A stretch of 64,000 nt of DNA from Escherichia coli (lineage in GTDB: Bacteria; Pseudomonadota; Gammaproteobacteria; Enterobacterales; Enterobacteriaceae), in the NCBI RefSeq assembly GCF_030384885.1, contig NZ_CP128613.1, one strand, 5' to 3'. The notes under the pieces were generated by a model, which had not been told where the DNA came from, did not search any database, and saw nothing but the letters and a program-made list of their open reading frames with translations. Below are positions 2,974-58,641 of the stretch, piece by piece. Numbering within the stretch: the first letter of the stretch is position 1; every line of letters starts with the position of its first letter. A program made the translations under genes and the position numbers.

Positions 2974-3374
2974 AGAAAATTTTTCCTTAAAGCAAATTTT
3001 ATTACTTTTATTTAGCCAGATTGTTTTTGAGTTCTGTTTTCGGCTTTTATAATTACTGCAAGAAATAATTTTATATTTAGAGTGTTGTTTTTTATTAGAA
3101 TAAATAACGTCTTCCGATACGTTTAAAACGTCAGAAAGATAAAAATATCATTTGAATTAAAAAAAGAACAAGTAGAGCATTAACCTTATCTTAAATAATA
3201 AATGGAGGCAAAAAGATTATTTTCTTTTTGCGTTTCCTTTCAAATGAAAACGATCGTCGTCTAAAATCAGCAGTACCCCCGACAAACTCAGGGATTTTGT
3301 GTATAATTGCGGCCTTTTTCGGCAATCTGCCGTTTTTTGGCGCTTTTGCCCTGCTGACTTTTGAGGAAATCCAC

Positions 3375-3710
3375 ATGTCATTACCACACTACCCAAAATG
3401 CAACTCCGAATACACCTACGAAGATAACGGCATGTACATCTGCCCGGAATGTGCCTACGAATGGAACGACGCAGAACCTGCACAGGAAAGCGATGAACTG
3501 ATCGTTAAAGATGCTAACGGCAATCTGCTGGCTGACGGCGACAGCGTTACCATCATTAAAGATCTGAAGGTGAAAGGTAGCTCTTCGATGCTGAAGATCG
3601 GTACCAAAGTGAAAAACATTCGCCTGGTTGAAGGCGACCACAACATCGATTGCAAAATCGACGGTTTTGGTCCGATGAAACTGAAATCTGAGTTTGTGAA
3701 AAAGAACTGA
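3375..3710 (+). CDS. yjdM: Zinc-ribbon protein YjdM (PhnA family)
   Basis: 111 aa from ATG 3375 with GAGG RBS; CPKC...CPEC zinc-ribbon motif. The ORF-track 160-aa version is an upstream in-frame extension that I reject. Confidence 0.85.
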
Positions 3711-3744
3711 TTGTATTGCTCAATGTAATATTGGCCCATGATCG

Positions 3745-3890
3745 GTAGGCCGGATAAGGCGCTCGCGCCGCATCCGGCTACGGTGCCGACTGCCTGATGC
3801 GACGCTCGCGCGTCTTATCAGGCCTACAAATTCTCGCACCATCCGGCAACGGTGCCTAATGCGACGCTTACCGAGTCTTATCAGCCCCCG
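3745..3890. repeat. REP/BIME cluster (three REP units)
   Basis: Repeated gccggataaggcgctcgcgccgcatccggc and ctgatgcgacgctcgcgcgtcttatcaggcctac palindromic units between yjdM and yjdN. Confidence 0.85.
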
Positions 3891-3949
3891 CTCATCTGTA
3901 TAATTTTCGAACTACACTTAACTGGCTTCTCTTAACTGAGGTCACCATC

Positions 3950-4393
3950 ATGCCGTTAAGTCCCTACCTCTCTTTTGCCGGTAACTGTTCCGACGCGATT
4001 GCCTATTATCAACGTACGTTGGGCGCGGAACTGCTCTATAAAATCAGCTTCGGCGAAATGCCGAAATCAGCGCAGGACAGCGCCGAGAACTGCCCTTCCG
4101 GTATGCAATTTCCCGATACCGCTATCGCCCATGCTAACGTGCGTATTGCCGGAAGCGATATCATGATGAGCGATGCCATACCGTCAGGAAAAGCCAGCTA
4201 CTCCGGCTTTACGCTGGTGCTCGATTCGCAACAGGTCGAAGAAGGAAAACGCTGGTTTGACAACCTTGCCGCTAACGGAAAAATCGAAATGGCCTGGCAG
4301 GAAACTTTCTGGGCGCATGGCTTCGGCAAAGTCACCGATAAATTTGGCGTACCGTGGATGATTAATGTCGTCAAACAACAACCAACGCACTAA
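3950..4393 (+). CDS. yjdN: Glyoxalase/VOC-family protein YjdN (PhnB-like)
   Basis: 147-aa ORF with GAGG RBS; position between yjdM and phnC. Confidence 0.8.
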   Translation: MPLSPYLSFAGNCSDAIAYYQRTLGAELLYKISFGEMPKSAQDSAENCPSGMQFPDTAIAHANVRIAGSDIMMSDAIPSGKASYSGFTLVLDSQQVEEGKRWFDNLAANGKIEMAWQETFWAHGFGKVTDKFGVPWMINVVKQQPTH

Positions 4394-54689: not shown

Positions 54690-55694
54690 TCAGTCGGGAA
54701 GTTGATGAAGAATTTGCCCCAGTCGCTCTTGCAGCGAACCCGAAACCGAAAGATAAGGAATGTTCCTGCGCGATAATTCCTGTTCGTACCACGCCTGCTG
54801 CCGCGCGCGAAACGCCTCTCCTTGCCGGGTGCCATCCTGCACAAAGGGAAATTCCGCGCCGCAAAGCACCACCAGAGAGTATTCCCGCTCCGCCAGCTGG
54901 TGAAGTTCCTTCGGGGCATGACCATATTGATCAAGGGTATAGAACAAGGTCGTGAGTGGCGATGTGTCACATATAAGATAGCGATTAGCTTCTGCTTGTT
55001 GTTCCCGACGTACCTGTTCGCGGGCGATATGCAACAAATCGTCTGCGGTTAAAACACCATTTTTCTCTTCCCAATAGTCGCGACCAAATTCAGCGACATA
55101 CGCCGTGTCGAGCACGTCCGCCAGCGCTTTTGAAAGTGTGCTCTTACCGGTTGATTCGCCACCAAGCAGACAGATACGGCGAACGAAACTGCGATAAACG
55201 TCGTGCGCCAGCATGTAACGATAGCGGTGAACGTCGGAACGAATCAGCGTTCCCGAAGGAGATTTATCGCCAAGTGGACGCTGTAATCGAATGTGTTCAA
55301 CAGGTTGGGCAAAACGCTTTGTCAGCACTTTAGCAAAACCGTCACCATAATCTTCTGCGGTAAATACAGCGTGTGGGCGGCAATGTAATACCTGCAGGCA
55401 CAGCGTCGCCACATAATGACGATGGATGTCGGCATCGGCATCATTATGCGGTATGGCAGGTAAGTTATAACGCGCGATCAGTTCGGGAGTCAGTACCAGA
55501 ACCGTCGCTCGCGGGAAGCTCACTTGCAGCCACGTCAGGCGCTTTTCAGGTTCACAGTCAGGCATTTCCGGCACGGAATAACTGATGATGAACAGTTCTT
55601 CACATTGTGCCAGCGCGGTATTGATCAACCGTTCATGACCACAATGCAAAGGCGCGAATTTGCCAACCACCAGTCCCGTTACGAAAGGCTTCAT
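54690..55694 (-). CDS. NadR-like bifunctional NMN adenylyltransferase / ribosylnicotinamide kinase lacking the N-terminal HTH domain
   Basis: About 334 aa from ATG 55692-55694; nucleotidyltransferase motif GKFAPLHCGH; Walker A GGESTGKST followed by EFGRDYW, resembling the E. coli NadR catalytic domains as I recall them. Confidence 0.7.
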   Translation of the reverse strand: MKPFVTGLVVGKFAPLHCGHERLINTALAQCEELFIISYSVPEMPDCEPEKRLTWLQVSFPRATVLVLTPELIARYNLPAIPHNDADADIHRHYVATLCLQVLHCRPHAVFTAEDYGDGFAKVLTKRFAQPVEHIRLQRPLGDKSPSGTLIRSDVHRYRYMLAHDVYRSFVRRICLLGGESTGKSTLSKALADVLDTAYVAEFGRDYWEEKNGVLTADDLLHIAREQVRREQQAEANRYLICDTSPLTTLFYTLDQYGHAPKELHQLAEREYSLVVLCGAEFPFVQDGTRQGEAFRARQQAWYEQELSRRNIPYLSVSGSLQERLGQILHQLPD

Positions 55695-56248
55695 GATGCC
55701 CGCAGCTCCTTGCGCCACTGATACAAACCATGCCAGGCGTTAATCCAGAACAGGAAATATAAACCGGCGGTCAAGTTTAAACCACGCGTCATATACAGTG
55801 GCACCGCCAGGGTATTCACTGCTAACCAGACGTACCAGTTTTCGATACGTCTTCCCATCAACATGAATTGTGCCAGAACGCTGAAGGTCAAAATCAACGA
55901 ATCCAGCCAGGGGGCCCAGGCATTGGTAAAGGTGTGGAGCAAAAAGCCGTAGCCACCTGCCACGACGACGGCACAGAGCAACAAGAGGAAAAAGTGACTG
56001 GCTTGCGTCCGGCGCACCGGCAAGACATCGCCACCCTGACCTTTCAGCCAGTGGATCCAACCGATGATGCTGGTTGCGATGAAGAATAACTGGAGCGTGA
56101 CATCGGCATAGAGTTGCACGGACCAAAAAACCCAGCCATACAGCATGCTACCAATTATGCCGATCCACCACGTATGCACATTGTTTCTGGCGGCCAGCCA
56201 GACGGAAACCGCGTATGCCAGACACGCGGCGATTTCTGAATAAGACAT
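55691..56248 (-). CDS. PnuC-family nucleoside (nicotinamide riboside-type) transporter
   Basis: 185-aa polytopic ORF with PnuC-like motifs QLYADVTLQLFF and ENWYVWL; GGGAGGG RBS; stop overlaps the start of the NadR-like gene. Confidence 0.7.
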   Translation of the reverse strand: MSYSEIAACLAYAVSVWLAARNNVHTWWIGIIGSMLYGWVFWSVQLYADVTLQLFFIATSIIGWIHWLKGQGGDVLPVRRTQASHFFLLLLCAVVVAGGYGFLLHTFTNAWAPWLDSLILTFSVLAQFMLMGRRIENWYVWLAVNTLAVPLYMTRGLNLTAGLYFLFWINAWHGLYQWRKELRAS

Positions 56249-56270: not shown

Positions 56271-57350
56271 TTAATCCACGTATTTCATCGCGACCCTTGA
56301 AGTCAGGCGCGTGATAAGTTCGTAAGCGCTCACTTTCGTCATTTCAGCGATACGTTCTACGGGCAAACCTTCGCCCCATAAAATGACCGGGTCCCCGGCT
56401 TTATCCTGCGCCTGTGGACCTAAGTCGACGCAGATCATATCCATCGCGACTCGCCCGACAATCGGCACTTCGCGACCGTTCACCAGCACTGGCGTACCGG
56501 ACGGCGCGGCGCGCGGATAACCATCGCCATAACCCATAGCGACTACGCCAAGACGGGTATTACGTTCGCTTACCCAGGTTCCACCATAACCGACAGGCTC
56601 TCCGGCTTTATGCTCACGCACAGCAATCAGGCTGGAGGTCAATGACATTACCGGCTGACAGCCAAAATCGGCACCGGTGGAGCGATCTTCCAGCGGCGAG
56701 ACACCGTAAAGAATGATGCCCGGGCGCACCCAGTCAAAATGTGACTGTGGCCACAGCAGAATGCCCCCCGACGCGGCAATGGAACGTTGACCAGGTTTGC
56801 CTTCACAAAAGGTATTAAAGATATCGAGTTGTTTCTCGGTTGCACCGCATTTTGGCTCATCCGCGCGCGCAAAATGGCTGACAATATTCACCGGCTGACG
56901 AACGTTTTTGCACTGAGTCAGGCGATGATAAAACGTCTCAGCCTGTTCCGGCCTTACGCCCAGACGGTGCATACCGGTATCGAGTTTCATCCAGACGGTA
57001 ACCGGCTCGTCCAGGCTGGCCTCTTCCAGCGCAGCAAGCTGTTCTTCGTTATGCACGGCGGTATGAAAATGTTGCGCAGAAATCGTCGGTAGATCTCTGG
57101 CATCAAAAAAGCCTTCGAGTAACAGTACAGGTTTGGTGATTCCCCCCGCACGCAGTCGCAGAGCTTCTTCGAGACGGGCTACGCCAAAGGCGTCAGCATC
57201 GGGGAGCGTTCGCGCGGTCTCAAGAAGACCGTGACCATAAGCGTTCGCTTTCACCACCGCAACCATTTTACTGGCAGGTGCCAGTTCACGAAGACGTTGC
57301 AGGTTGTGTCGCAGAGCGCGGCGGTTAATCACAACAGTTGCCGCTTGCAT
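56271..57350 (-). CDS. alr: Alanine racemase, biosynthetic
   Basis: 359 aa; PLP-lysine motif [11 protein letters not shown]. Confidence 0.95.
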
Positions 57351-57476
57351 TTGTGTTCCTTTTTTTCAGGTTCTGCCCACCCGTGCAAAACCTCGCTAAA
57401 CAGATAGGACCGGAGTATGCTATTCCACATCCAGGGATGGGTTTATAAACGGCAAGATGATATCGGATTTTCAGCC

Positions 57477-58037
57477 ATGACAAAGATAAAATTTGTTTTC
57501 TTTTTTCTGCTAATCGCAGGTATAACGCCTGCCGCGACGGGGGCTTGCCCGGCGCAGACACCTGACGGTGTCGCAGATAAGTTTTACTCAACCTATGTTT
57601 TTTCTGATACCAGCTTTAAGAGTGAAAAAGACCAGCTGGCATTTTTTCAGAAATACCTCACCCCCTCGCTTTATCAACTGATTGTTGGCGCGTATGACAG
57701 AAATAAACGCGACTACGCCATCGATCCCACGGCCAAACCTACTTTTGGTGACGGGATTATTTTCACGTCTTATCCTTCGGATAGTTACTATGAGAAATTT
57801 GATGGCGTGACACTACCGTCATCGTATAAACCTGGTGATAACAACGTCACTGTCGCCCTCCATTTTCATTTTACCGTTGATGATAAAAAGGCCTGGCAGG
57901 ACGAAGCGCTAATGGCGCGTTCCGCTGATGATGGCTGTTGGCGGATCGACAATATCATATTCCACGAAGACGAAGATAACTCGGTTCTGAGCCTTAAAGA
58001 GTGGCTAAAAAAAGGGATTGAAAGTCCGGCGGAATAA
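57477..58037 (+). CDS. Hypothetical secreted protein (signal peptide, two Cys); alternative start 57417
   Basis: 186 aa from ATG 57477 (MTKIKFVFFFLLIAGITPAATGA...); no family recognised. Confidence 0.55.
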   Translation: MTKIKFVFFFLLIAGITPAATGACPAQTPDGVADKFYSTYVFSDTSFKSEKDQLAFFQKYLTPSLYQLIVGAYDRNKRDYAIDPTAKPTFGDGIIFTSYPSDSYYEKFDGVTLPSSYKPGDNNVTVALHFHFTVDDKKAWQDEALMARSADDGCWRIDNIIFHEDEDNSVLSLKEWLKKGIESPAE

Positions 58038-58082
58038 AGCAGTTCAACGAACTCAGGAAAAGCATTTTACAAGGAGATAGTA

Positions 58083-58610
58083 ATGACCCCAGACCTGGAA
58101 CTACTCAAAAACAAACGTAATCAAATTAAAGAAATCATTGATGAGCTACAGCTTACATTAACCGACGATCCAAATTGGGATGCCCCTTCTGATAACAGTT
58201 ATTTAAATGAAGAAGAACTCGCCATCCCTGAAATTCAGGATAATGTGACGGCAATAAAGGCGACGAATAAATTAATCAGCTGGTTTGGGCAAGATCATGA
58301 AGGTTTTGTCGGCTTATGGCGAGGTCCCAATGCGATCCCCCTCGATAAAGCGCAAGTGGTTCGGCTGAATGATGAAGCTAACTATGAACTAGTCGCCGAT
58401 ACCGTGCCCAATTACCTGATGTTCACCTATTTTTATGGCGATGAAGATACTGAACAACATGAATACAATCGTGTTAAAAAATTACTGACTGATGCAGGAT
58501 TCACCGTTGCTGGCGACATAGAAGCTATCTATGACAATATTGATTACGATAGTCTTCAACCTGAAGATTATAAAGAAGAGCAATATAATCAGGCCCAATC
58601 CCGCCGATAA
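58083..58610 (+). CDS. Hypothetical acidic cytoplasmic protein
   Basis: 175-aa ORF with strong AAGGAG RBS 7 nt upstream; D/E-rich and AT-rich by eye; no family recognised. Confidence 0.6.
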   Translation: MTPDLELLKNKRNQIKEIIDELQLTLTDDPNWDAPSDNSYLNEEELAIPEIQDNVTAIKATNKLISWFGQDHEGFVGLWRGPNAIPLDKAQVVRLNDEANYELVADTVPNYLMFTYFYGDEDTEQHEYNRVKKLLTDAGFTVAGDIEAIYDNIDYDSLQPEDYKEEQYNQAQSRR

Positions 58611-58641
58611 AAATTTTGCCGGTGTTTAACCGGCAAATTGA

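Follow-up and report, generated by a model that had tools for sequence, protein, structure and literature searches.

The SUKH superfamily comprises proteins such as YobK and RhsPI, which confer immunity to polymorphic toxins, and also the yeast hub protein Smi1/Knr4, and its characterised members neutralise or sequester a partner protein one-to-one. In the envelope, YqhG of E. coli is a periplasmic protein of the DUF3828 superfamily that, in UPEC, affects type 1 fimbriae and the resistance to oxidative stress. The characterised members of this superfamily bind another envelope protein: YbjP, an outer-membrane lipoprotein of E. coli, clamps onto TolC, and Tai3 plugs the active site of the peptidoglycan amidase Tae3 (Horne et al., bioRxiv 10.1101/2025.03.19.644130; PMC6099711), a Q-D-x motif being the criterion for Tae3 inhibition (Horne et al., bioRxiv 10.1101/2025.03.19.644130).

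The locus described here belongs to a stretch of 64,000 nucleotides of E. coli DNA (contig NZ_CP128613.1), referred to as the window. Its identity to E. coli 2013C-4282 (NZ_CP027579.1) is 100%, and both ORFs of interest are annotated there as 'hypothetical protein'. The spacer between dnaB and alr (57351-58641) is 1,291 bp long and contains two plus-strand ORFs, called genes A and B (Table 1), in agreement with the original prediction of two plus-strand genes within about 1.3 kb. K-12 was rightly described in that prediction as having the two core genes co-oriented and separated by about 50 bp: the MG1655 gap between the end of dnaB (4265729) and the start of alr (4265782) is 52 bp. The description of the two products is also borne out, the 186-aa one having a signal-peptide-like N-terminus and two Cys residues (C24 and C154), and the 175-aa one being acidic (pI 4.2) and encoded by an AT-rich gene (41% GC) with a strong ribosome-binding site (AAGGAG).

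Table 1. Features of the dnaB-alr locus and their positions in the window
Feature	Position	Strand	Description	Basis
alr (alanine racemase)	56271..57350	-	core flank; first ~80 nt within the exchanged tract	ORF, annotation, sliding identity
Recombination tract, ~2.1 kb	57270..59370	.	boundaries approximate, from 100-bp windows	
Divergent control region, 126 bp	57351..57476	.	alr start to gene A start	
Gene A, WP_002433025.1, 186 aa	57477..58037	+	predicted exported NTF2-like protein of the DUF3828 superfamily	
Predicted Sec signal peptide of gene A	57477..57542	+	residues 1-22, MTKIKFVFFFLLIAGITPAATG	sequence inspection
A-B spacer, 45 bp	58038..58082	+	holds the ribosome-binding site of gene B, AAGGAG, 58071-58076	
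Gene B, WP_000186897.1, 175 aa	58083..58610	+	acidic, predicted cytoplasmic; unnamed family with a predicted SUKH (SMI1/KNR4 / SUKH-4)-like fold	
Predicted bidirectional intrinsic-terminator hairpin	58615..58637	.	where gene B and dnaB converge, between their stop codons	terminator scan, both strands
dnaB (replicative helicase)	58642..60057	-	core flank; last ~730 nt within the exchanged tract	

Three states of the dnaB-alr site are found in 5,426 complete E. coli genomes: empty, with gene A only (116 genomes) or with both genes (2 genomes). The empty, K-12-like site spans 362 bp in all 58 flank-only genomes sampled. Gene A is thus present in 118 of these genomes, mainly UPEC-type B2 strains (CFT073, 536, Nissle, ABU83972, F11), as well as in other Escherichia, and its site is invariably dnaB-alr, where its orthologues are also located. 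Both genes are missing in about 98% of the complete E. coli genomes and in K-12, and no housekeeping annotation exists for either of them. The comparison across genomes that had been proposed for this locus therefore identifies rare accessory genes, and not genes carried by most E. coli with a housekeeping annotation.

Gene A can be considered as a real gene under purifying selection, because its dN/dS is 0.15 in comparison with an 82%-identical orthologue (dS 0.63). Gene B is likewise considered as real, given its structural model of pLDDT 88.9 and its full-length homologues of 40-59% identity in other orders and phyla, from Enterobacterales to Myxococcota. Longer annotations of gene A (206, 232 and 243 aa) are ruled out by an in-frame TAA that Escherichia sp. 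E4742 has upstream of the MTKIKF start.

The gene A product itself matches no Pfam model, PF12883 included, even at E<=10, and it matches the NCBIfam model NF007824 (YbjP) with an E-value of 1.8e-9 and 37.7 bits, below the 200-bit equivalog cut-off. PF12883 is matched by 13 of its 22 homologues (best 1.2e-12), and a profile made from these 22 homologues matches YbjP in the PDB at 6e-24 without reaching Tai3 at the sequence level. The 82%-identical orthologue is annotated as 'DUF3828 domain-containing protein', and the newest RefSeq (PGAP) name of gene A is 'YqhG/Tai3 family protein'. The AF2 model (pLDDT 85.2) consists of three helices followed by five strands, and in Foldseek searches its top match is YbjP (9tg4_P, E 1.2e-5) and the next one Tai3 (4hz9, probability 0.99), further NTF2-like proteins being also matched. 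Profile and model together place the gene A product, as a predicted NTF2-like cone, in the DUF3828 superfamily (YbjP / Tai3 / YqhG). The original prediction could place neither protein in a family; this no longer holds for gene A and still holds for gene B, for which there is no Pfam or NCBIfam model. Domain-model searches did not match either product to an enzyme or toxin family. As for gene A, PADLOC (anti-phage defence) reports nothing, and the only match among PHROGs is a weak one to a family of unknown function.

By inspection, the N-terminus of gene A has a K-rich n-region followed by a hydrophobic core, and the signal peptide is probably cut after A20-T21-G22. The protein would thus be Sec-exported, soluble and periplasmic. 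Lipidation is improbable: in the alignment with YbjP, C24 falls on the internal C36 and not on the lipidated C19, and in the E4742 orthologue an Asp at position -1 of the Cys (AIGD-C) breaks the lipobox. C24 and C154 probably form a disulfide.

YbjP (PDB 9QGY, 9TG4, 9V52) is the closest known protein to gene A by sequence, profile and structure. The two share the NTF2-like fold, the W-Q-D-E motif, which is conserved in gene A as W140-Q141-D142-E143, and an aligned pair of Cys residues (C36 and the Cys of 'GQCW' in YbjP, C24 and C154 in gene A). However, they are only 21% identical, the score of gene A falls far short of the YbjP cut-off as given above, and gene A lacks both the lipobox Cys and the flexible linker that runs along TolC in YbjP. 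Among the named TolC-contacting residues of YbjP (K70, S107, S109, T110, N113, N118, E135, R151, G155, V157 and A159), only 3 of 11 are identical in gene A (S116, N122 and E143). Conversely, the P-x-x-K-P-x-F-G-D-G segment of the wider family is kept in gene A and lost in YbjP. Finally, YbjP belongs to the core genes, whereas about 2% of E. coli carry gene A. The score, the anchor and the contact residues lead us to reject gene A as a lipoprotein or as a true YbjP orthologue.

With Tai3, gene A shares the DUF3828/NTF2-like fold (TMt 0.50-0.53 at the Foldseek probability given above) and, as far as gene A can be judged by inspection, a signal peptide and a non-lipidated, periplasmic state. The Q-D-x tripeptide of gene A, Q141-D142-E143, which YbjP also has at the aligned position, is a possible counterpart of the inhibitory motif of Tai3. 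Unlike Tai3, gene A is about 40 residues longer, has no sequence match to it and has alr and dnaB as neighbours instead of a tae3 gene or a T6SS cluster. No amidase or T6SS gene was seen beside remote homologues of gene A on the two contigs available: one homologue with enough flanking DNA has no effector as a neighbour, and the contig of the closest non-Escherichia homologue, of 1.2 kb, is too short to be informative. YqhG resembles gene A in belonging to the same superfamily and in being periplasmic.

These comparisons bear on the possibility that neither gene has to do with interbacterial conflict and that both have accessory roles in the envelope or in housekeeping. In that case, gene A would be a periplasmic accessory factor like YbjP or YqhG, with an outer-membrane channel or some other envelope protein as its partner, or it would influence fimbriae or the resistance to oxidative stress, the effect that YqhG has in UPEC. 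Gene B would be a cytoplasmic hub or regulator of the Syd/Smi1 type, bound to a conserved component of the cell. Such roles would agree with YbjP, and not Tai3, being the closest solved relative of gene A, with neither YqhG nor YbjP being an immunity protein and with the absence of a nearby toxin gene. They are less easily reconciled with the low identity to YbjP, the few conserved contact residues, the missing anchor and linker and the low score. Moreover, E. coli can do without either gene and few genomes carry them, which is what one would expect of niche or conflict genes rather than of housekeeping ones. We consider accessory roles of this kind as unlikely. The gene B family, described below, brings further arguments on both sides.

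The gene B product contains 36 D+E against 15 K+R residues, and the GC content of its gene contrasts with that of the flanks (~54%). No Pfam or NCBIfam model matches it, nor does any PDB entry at the sequence level, and no SUKH-clan model is matched by its homologues (17 searched against Pfam and 9 against NCBIfam). Its model has nevertheless full-length Foldseek matches to proteins annotated as 'SMI1/KNR4 family' and 'SUKH-4 family immunity protein' (TMq 0.75-0.85, E 3e-9 to 5e-7), and it shows the N-terminal helices, the 4-stranded sheet and the C-terminal helices of the SUKH fold. We therefore assign gene B, on its predicted structure, to a SUKH (SMI1/KNR4, SUKH-4)-like fold and to a family that has no name. 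The likeness to the SUKH superfamily extends beyond the full-length predicted fold, as gene B is small, acidic and apparently cytoplasmic, lacks a catalytic motif and has the C-terminal 'V-x-L-d-x-e-g-x-y-x-l-v-A' pattern of SUKH domains. No catalytic-looking invariant residue is seen in the family, and PADLOC returns only a spurious 16-bit match for gene B.

Several features set the gene B family apart from the SUKH superfamily: the lack of an HMM match to any SUKH family, the invariant M-T-P N-terminus, accompanied by a conserved P-S-D-x-S-Y-L loop, and the histone-H1-like AKP tails to which homologues from Myxococcota are often fused via a poly-acidic linker. In the contexts seen, gene B is never beside a toxin gene or an immunity array, as SUKH immunity proteins are. 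At least 228 homologues were found, most of them from Myxococcota, and the family is conserved across phyla to a far greater degree than is typical of immunity proteins; the 40-59% identity from Enterobacterales to Myxococcota is unusual for an immunity family and argues against an immunity function of gene B. The histone-H1-like fusion points to a conserved cellular partner of the family rather than to a fast-evolving toxin. These properties (conservation across phyla, solitary occurrence and DNA-binding-like tails in Myxococcota) also speak for the accessory roles considered above, against which it must be set that the gene B locus is found in only 6 of 100,044 species representatives. One can even speculate, although this seems doubtful to us, that the family is a cross-phylum SUKH-like branch that is not devoted to toxin immunity and binds a conserved, possibly nucleoid-associated target. 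In that case, the Escherichia, Klebsiella oxytoca and Leminorella copies would be sporadic horizontal acquisitions recurring at the dnaB-alr-tyrB neighbourhood.

A strict promoter scan of the spacer finds nothing. In a relaxed scan, the sole sigma-70-like candidate facing gene A is a weak one (-35 ATTCCA at 57422-57427, 16-nt spacer, -10 TATAAA at 57444-57449), which we infer only tentatively to be its promoter, and no candidate alr promoter is found in either scan. The terminator scan finds no terminator-like site in the A-B spacer, and genes A and B are therefore probably co-transcribed; the AAGGAG of gene B lies 6 nt before its ATG. The hairpin located after gene B has a 9-bp stem, 5 of the 9 bp being GC, a folding energy of -16 kcal/mol and z values of -3.9 and -3.1, and it is predicted to end both the A-B operon and dnaB. 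When A-only strains are aligned (EcN and E4742), the homologous hairpin directly follows gene A, and gene B is present or absent as a clean indel, bounded by the stop codon of gene A on one side and by the shared hairpin on the other. The spacers have no Rfam match at E<=1 that would indicate a non-coding RNA.

The original prediction had been reminded of a cognate pair, i.e., a secreted effector or inhibitor with an acidic cytoplasmic immunity or antidote protein. The arrangement invites this view, as the genes are adjacent, co-oriented, 45 bp apart and probably co-transcribed, one product being apparently exported and the other acidic and cytoplasmic. However, of the 118 E. coli genomes that carry gene A, 116 lack gene B, as does Escherichia sp. 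E4742, and homologues of gene B outside Escherichia occur without gene A, no DUF3828 neighbour being found on the Leminorella, K. oxytoca, Acidovorax and Myxococcota contigs. A and B are therefore not an obligate pair. Gene B has no conserved neighbour in ten loci, and no toxin-type Pfam domain is found beside it among the annotated neighbours in 7 non-Escherichia contexts and the Escherichia loci, where many neighbours are unannotated. More generally, no toxin, T6SS, CDI or Rhs gene adjoins gene A, gene B or any homologue examined. The word 'effector' also has to be dropped: gene A belongs to a superfamily of binders and immunity proteins, neither product has an enzyme or toxin domain, both have folds known from binder proteins, and there is no T6SS, CDI or Rhs gene in the 64-kb window. 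In addition, an immunity protein confined to the cytoplasm would have no contact, in the cell that makes both, with a partner that is exported. Judged from their distribution, A and B are functionally independent and not an effector/immunity pair, and the cognate-pair view, which we regard as highly improbable, is close to refuted. What survives of it is the immunity-type character at the level of the fold (Tai3 superfamily for A, SUKH for B), which the gene context does not uphold.

The way in which the genes reached this site can be deduced from the comparison with the E. fergusonii assembly GCA_022510365.1. The tract made of the alr 5' end, genes A and B and the dnaB 3' half is 99-100% identical to this assembly. 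Beyond the tract, identity is 86-92% on the dnaB side and, on the alr side, 74-89% over most of the length, rising to 94% in the 100 bp that adjoin the tract. Because identity is 99-100% in the tract against 74-92% in the flanks, we conclude that the cassette moved by homologous recombination, and that it spreads among Escherichia lineages in this way through the flanking core genes. Flanking repeats, which had been proposed as a check, are absent beyond chance in either direct or inverted orientation, and the cassette contains no integrase, transposase or other mobility gene. As no homologue of gene B was found in 72,556 plasmids and 50,697 phage records either, integration or carriage by a mobile element is rejected in favour of homologous recombination.

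It can also be asked whether the genes are neutral hitch-hikers, i.e., expressed or silent leftovers without a present function in E. coli that are carried along by core-gene recombination. Their great rarity in E. coli, the mosaic, recombination-prone region in which the site lies and the lack of a strong promoter would be in keeping with this. On the other hand, every copy examined has an uninterrupted reading frame for both genes, the dN/dS of gene A is 0.15-0.27, gene B has a strong ribosome-binding site and a family conserved across phyla, and its exact protein is found on 638 contigs. Neutral carriage is thus considered improbable.

Taken together, our results lead us to favour, with a probability of about one half, a small accessory operon that encodes two unrelated, non-enzymatic binders, for which orphan immunity is the leading guess, and that is spread by recombination. 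The operon runs in the direction opposite to dnaB and alr and would stop at the hairpin that is predicted to terminate dnaB as well. Gene A would be exported via its Sec signal peptide and fold as an NTF2-like cone, and gene B would remain in the cytoplasm with its SUKH fold. Each protein, by analogy with its characterised relatives, would most likely bind and block a partner in its own compartment. As orphan immunity proteins, A could act against an incoming cell-wall-degrading effector and B against an incoming cytoplasmic toxin domain, both delivered by competitors. We infer the binder or immunity function of A and B from these relationships; a literature search on WP_002433025.1, WP_000186897.1 or a guessed CFT073 locus tag returned nothing.

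If either protein were indeed an orphan immunity factor, it would add to the emerging defence-only genes of gut Enterobacteriaceae. Independently of function, the locus illustrates clearly how accessory genes move from one Escherichia species to another without a mobile element, by recombination alone via the essential genes dnaB and alr. Gene A appears as a third DUF3828 paralogue besides YbjP and YqhG and marks some uropathogenic or probiotic B2 lineages (CFT073, 536, Nissle 1917, ABU83972). The gene B family, with at least 228 members and no name in any library, can now be assigned a predicted SUKH-like fold and is a candidate for a partner screen. The practical value of these results lies mainly in annotation and population genetics, and they do not overturn the current understanding.

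As a whole, the cassette can also be compared with the orphan immunity genes and acquired interbacterial defence clusters known from gut bacteria (e.g., PMC12247911). Unlike them, which are found in mobile elements or arrays and evolve fast, the cassette has no mobility genes and its gene B evolves slowly. Like them, it combines predicted immunity-type folds without a cognate effector, presence in a gut bacterium, a patchy distribution and horizontal transfer.

The insertion between dnaB and alr is genuine and rare, and its description was correct. The chromosome of E. coli 2013C-4282, from human stool in the USA, is identical to the window. Its dnaB and alr genes are separated by 1,291 bp, versus 52 bp in K-12 MG1655, in agreement with the K-12 adjacency given in the original prediction. 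The roughly 1.3-kb spacer carries the two plus-strand genes announced there: gene A (WP_002433025.1), whose exported product has the expected two cysteines, and gene B (WP_000186897.1), encoding the acidic cytoplasmic protein, with a GC content of 41% (~54% in the flanks) and the strong ribosome-binding site AAGGAG 6 nt upstream of its ATG. RefSeq labels both as 'hypothetical protein' in 2013C-4282.

Features of the dnaB-alr spacer and its flanks in the window
Feature	Position	Strand	Description
alr	56271-57350	minus	flank of spacer
gene A	57477-58037	plus	ORF, 186 aa, two Cys (24, 154)
gene B	58083-58610	plus	ORF, 175 aa, pI 4.2
hairpin	58615-58637	both	scores as intrinsic terminator
dnaB	58642-60057	minus	flank of spacer

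Only three states of the dnaB-alr site are observed among 5,426 complete E. coli genomes. Gene A is present in 118 of them, chiefly B2 uropathogenic or probiotic strains (CFT073, 536, F11, ABU83972, Nissle 1917), gene B in two, the window strain and 2017-02-2CC, and the empty, K-12-like site, where the flank-to-flank span is 362 bp, was found in 58/58 genomes sampled evenly from the remainder. Larger collections of drafts and read assemblies contain exact copies of both proteins, that of gene B on 638 contigs and that of gene A on 341; complete E. fergusonii genomes are among these matches. Escherichia sp. E4742 has a gene A orthologue (82% identity) at the same site, without gene B. Gene B is a clean indel: about 575 bp, comprising its ribosome-binding site and coding sequence, lie between the gene A stop codon and the hairpin, and in strains carrying gene A only, the homologous hairpin directly follows that stop codon. 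Genes A and B are independent of each other and neither is an effector; the pair of effector or inhibitor plus immunity protein originally suggested is now very improbable.

A tract of ~2.1 kb (roughly 57270-59370), running from the first ~80 nt of alr through genes A and B and the hairpin to the final ~730 nt of dnaB, is 99-100% identical to one E. fergusonii assembly. Outside it, identity is 74-92% over most of the length, and 94% in the 100-bp alr window abutting the tract. Such a near-identical tract within diverged flanks is the signature of a segment exchanged recently, with homologous recombination acting through the core flanks. Neither flanking repeats, mobility genes or RNA elements at the locus nor gene B copies on plasmids or phages were found. 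The whole dnaB-alr region is a recombination mosaic, and the locus neatly illustrates how accessory genes move through recombination of core genes. Both genes could have been carried along neutrally, as hitch-hikers, which we consider unlikely; the dN/dS of gene A, 0.15, indicates purifying selection. The 5' and 3' halves of the window-strain dnaB are of different ancestry, and the Nissle alr (3072-4151 in its locus, L002) is 73-89% identical to that of K-12 over nt ~180-700, its central third, and 100% identical at both ends.

One slot further on, the alr-tyrB interval (54690-56248, minus strand) harbours a second accessory module, in which a PnuC-family nicotinamide riboside transporter (185 aa) overlaps a NadR-like AAA_28 ATPase/adenylyltransferase (334-342 aa). 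Absent in K-12, it is present in 868 of the 5,426 complete genomes, mostly at ~91% identity to the window copy. The deposited genome of the window strain (NZ_CP027579.1) matches it at 99.9%, about one base off, and matches 57200-58800 at 100%.

The hairpin is predicted to fold at -16 kcal/mol (z of -3.9 and -3.1) and, given its score on both strands, would therefore end the convergent dnaB and A-B transcripts. As no terminator was found between genes A and B, they are probably co-transcribed. Scans of the spacer revealed no strong promoter and one weak candidate facing gene A, and no sigma-70-like promoter for alr was detectable in the 126-bp divergent spacer (57351-57476). A terminator after dnaB should stop read-through into alr, possible in K-12. 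Gene A starts at the MTKIKF methionine, giving the 186-aa form. Public records give discordant starts (186, 206, 232, 243 aa), some overlapping the alr start codon (e.g., L002 4139-4837); the longer forms (206-243 aa) are ruled out by an in-frame TAA in the E4742 orthologue.

It had been stated that neither protein could be placed in a family from sequence alone. This no longer holds for gene A, which belongs to the DUF3828 superfamily; it does hold for the name of gene B, whose family is unnamed, yet a SUKH-like fold can be assigned to it. Gene A has no direct match in Pfam and matches the NCBIfam YbjP model weakly (1.8e-9, 37.7 bits, for a cut-off of 200 bits). An exhaustive phmmer search gave 26 relatives, and PF12883 (DUF3828) is matched by 13 of the 22 that were aligned; their profile reaches YbjP structures at 6e-24, and not Tai3. 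AlphaFold models the protein as an NTF2-like cone (pLDDT 85). In the PDB this model matches YbjP best (E 1.2e-5), and Tai3 with a probability of 0.99 and a TM of ~0.5. The newest PGAP name is 'YqhG/Tai3 family protein'. Three branches of the superfamily are characterised: Tai3 acts in the periplasm as an immunity protein that counters Tae3, a T6SS amidase; YbjP is a lipoprotein of the outer membrane that binds TolC; and YqhG influences fimbriae and oxidative-stress resistance in UPEC (Horne et al., bioRxiv 10.1101/2025.03.19.644130). Tai3 inserts a loop into the Tae3 active site (PMC6099711). Orthology with YbjP is ruled out, as gene A shares 21% identity with it, keeps 3 of its 11 TolC-contact residues, lacks its lipid anchor and linker, and aligns C24 with the internal C36 of YbjP, a Cys preceded by Asp in the gene A orthologue. 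Neither is gene A demonstrably a Tai3, because no effector or T6SS gene was found near it in the 64-kb window. Its Q-D-E motif (141-143) is also present in YbjP and cannot tell the branches apart here. Gene A adds a new subfamily member to a superfamily that is known and already named.

Gene B has no family match in Pfam, NCBIfam, PADLOC or PHROG, nor do its scanned homologues in Pfam and NCBIfam. A first search retrieved 22 homologues, and a profile search at least 228, all full length, ~40-59% identical, without any Pfam domain and chiefly from Myxococcota metagenome bins. Among 100,044 species representatives, six carry gene B: Leminorella grimontii, Klebsiella oxytoca and four Myxococcota bins. 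In K. oxytoca, type strain included, the homologue (55% identity) lies on the opposite strand in the tyrB-alr interval (loci L007/L008, 6001-6732, and L022), one slot away from that of the window; the same rare gene has thus landed twice in the dnaB-alr-tyrB neighbourhood. The confident gene B model (pLDDT 88.9) has full-length Foldseek matches in AFDB50 (TMq 0.75-0.85) to 'SMI1/KNR4 family protein' and 'SUKH-4 family immunity protein', and its predicted fold is SUKH-like. The invariant residues of the family give no sign of catalysis. In the family alignment (A1), the M-T-P N-terminus is invariant and P-S-D-x-S-Y-L (residues 35-41) nearly so; the latter falls within the loop modelled with least confidence, as would be expected for a partner-binding element.

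In many Myxococcota homologues, a poly-acidic linker is joined to an AKP-rich, histone-H1-like tail, which may tether the protein to DNA or the nucleoid. The Myxococcota homologues (P0080, P0082, P0084, P0098, P0104, P0112, P0071, P0088, P0148, P0069) reach 235-346 aa, the longer ones having a poly-Asp/Glu linker and then the Ala/Lys/Pro-rich tail, which ends in KKKRK. No toxin gene or conserved neighbour was found in the ten contexts read, and typical immunity proteins are far less conserved than this family. Together with the histone-H1-like tails, these features argue against a classical immunity role for gene B. Functions outside conflict, gene A acting in the envelope and gene B as a cytoplasmic hub, are the main rival explanation, a possible but less probable one.

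We favour, at a probability of about 0.5, a cassette of two unrelated accessory binding proteins, with orphan immunity as the leading, unproven, specific guess. The gene A product would act in the periplasm and that of gene B in the cytoplasm, each as a binding protein, and both are candidates for partner screens. This reading follows from the characterised members of both superfamilies, which are stoichiometric binders or inhibitors; the cassette does not represent a novel type of system.
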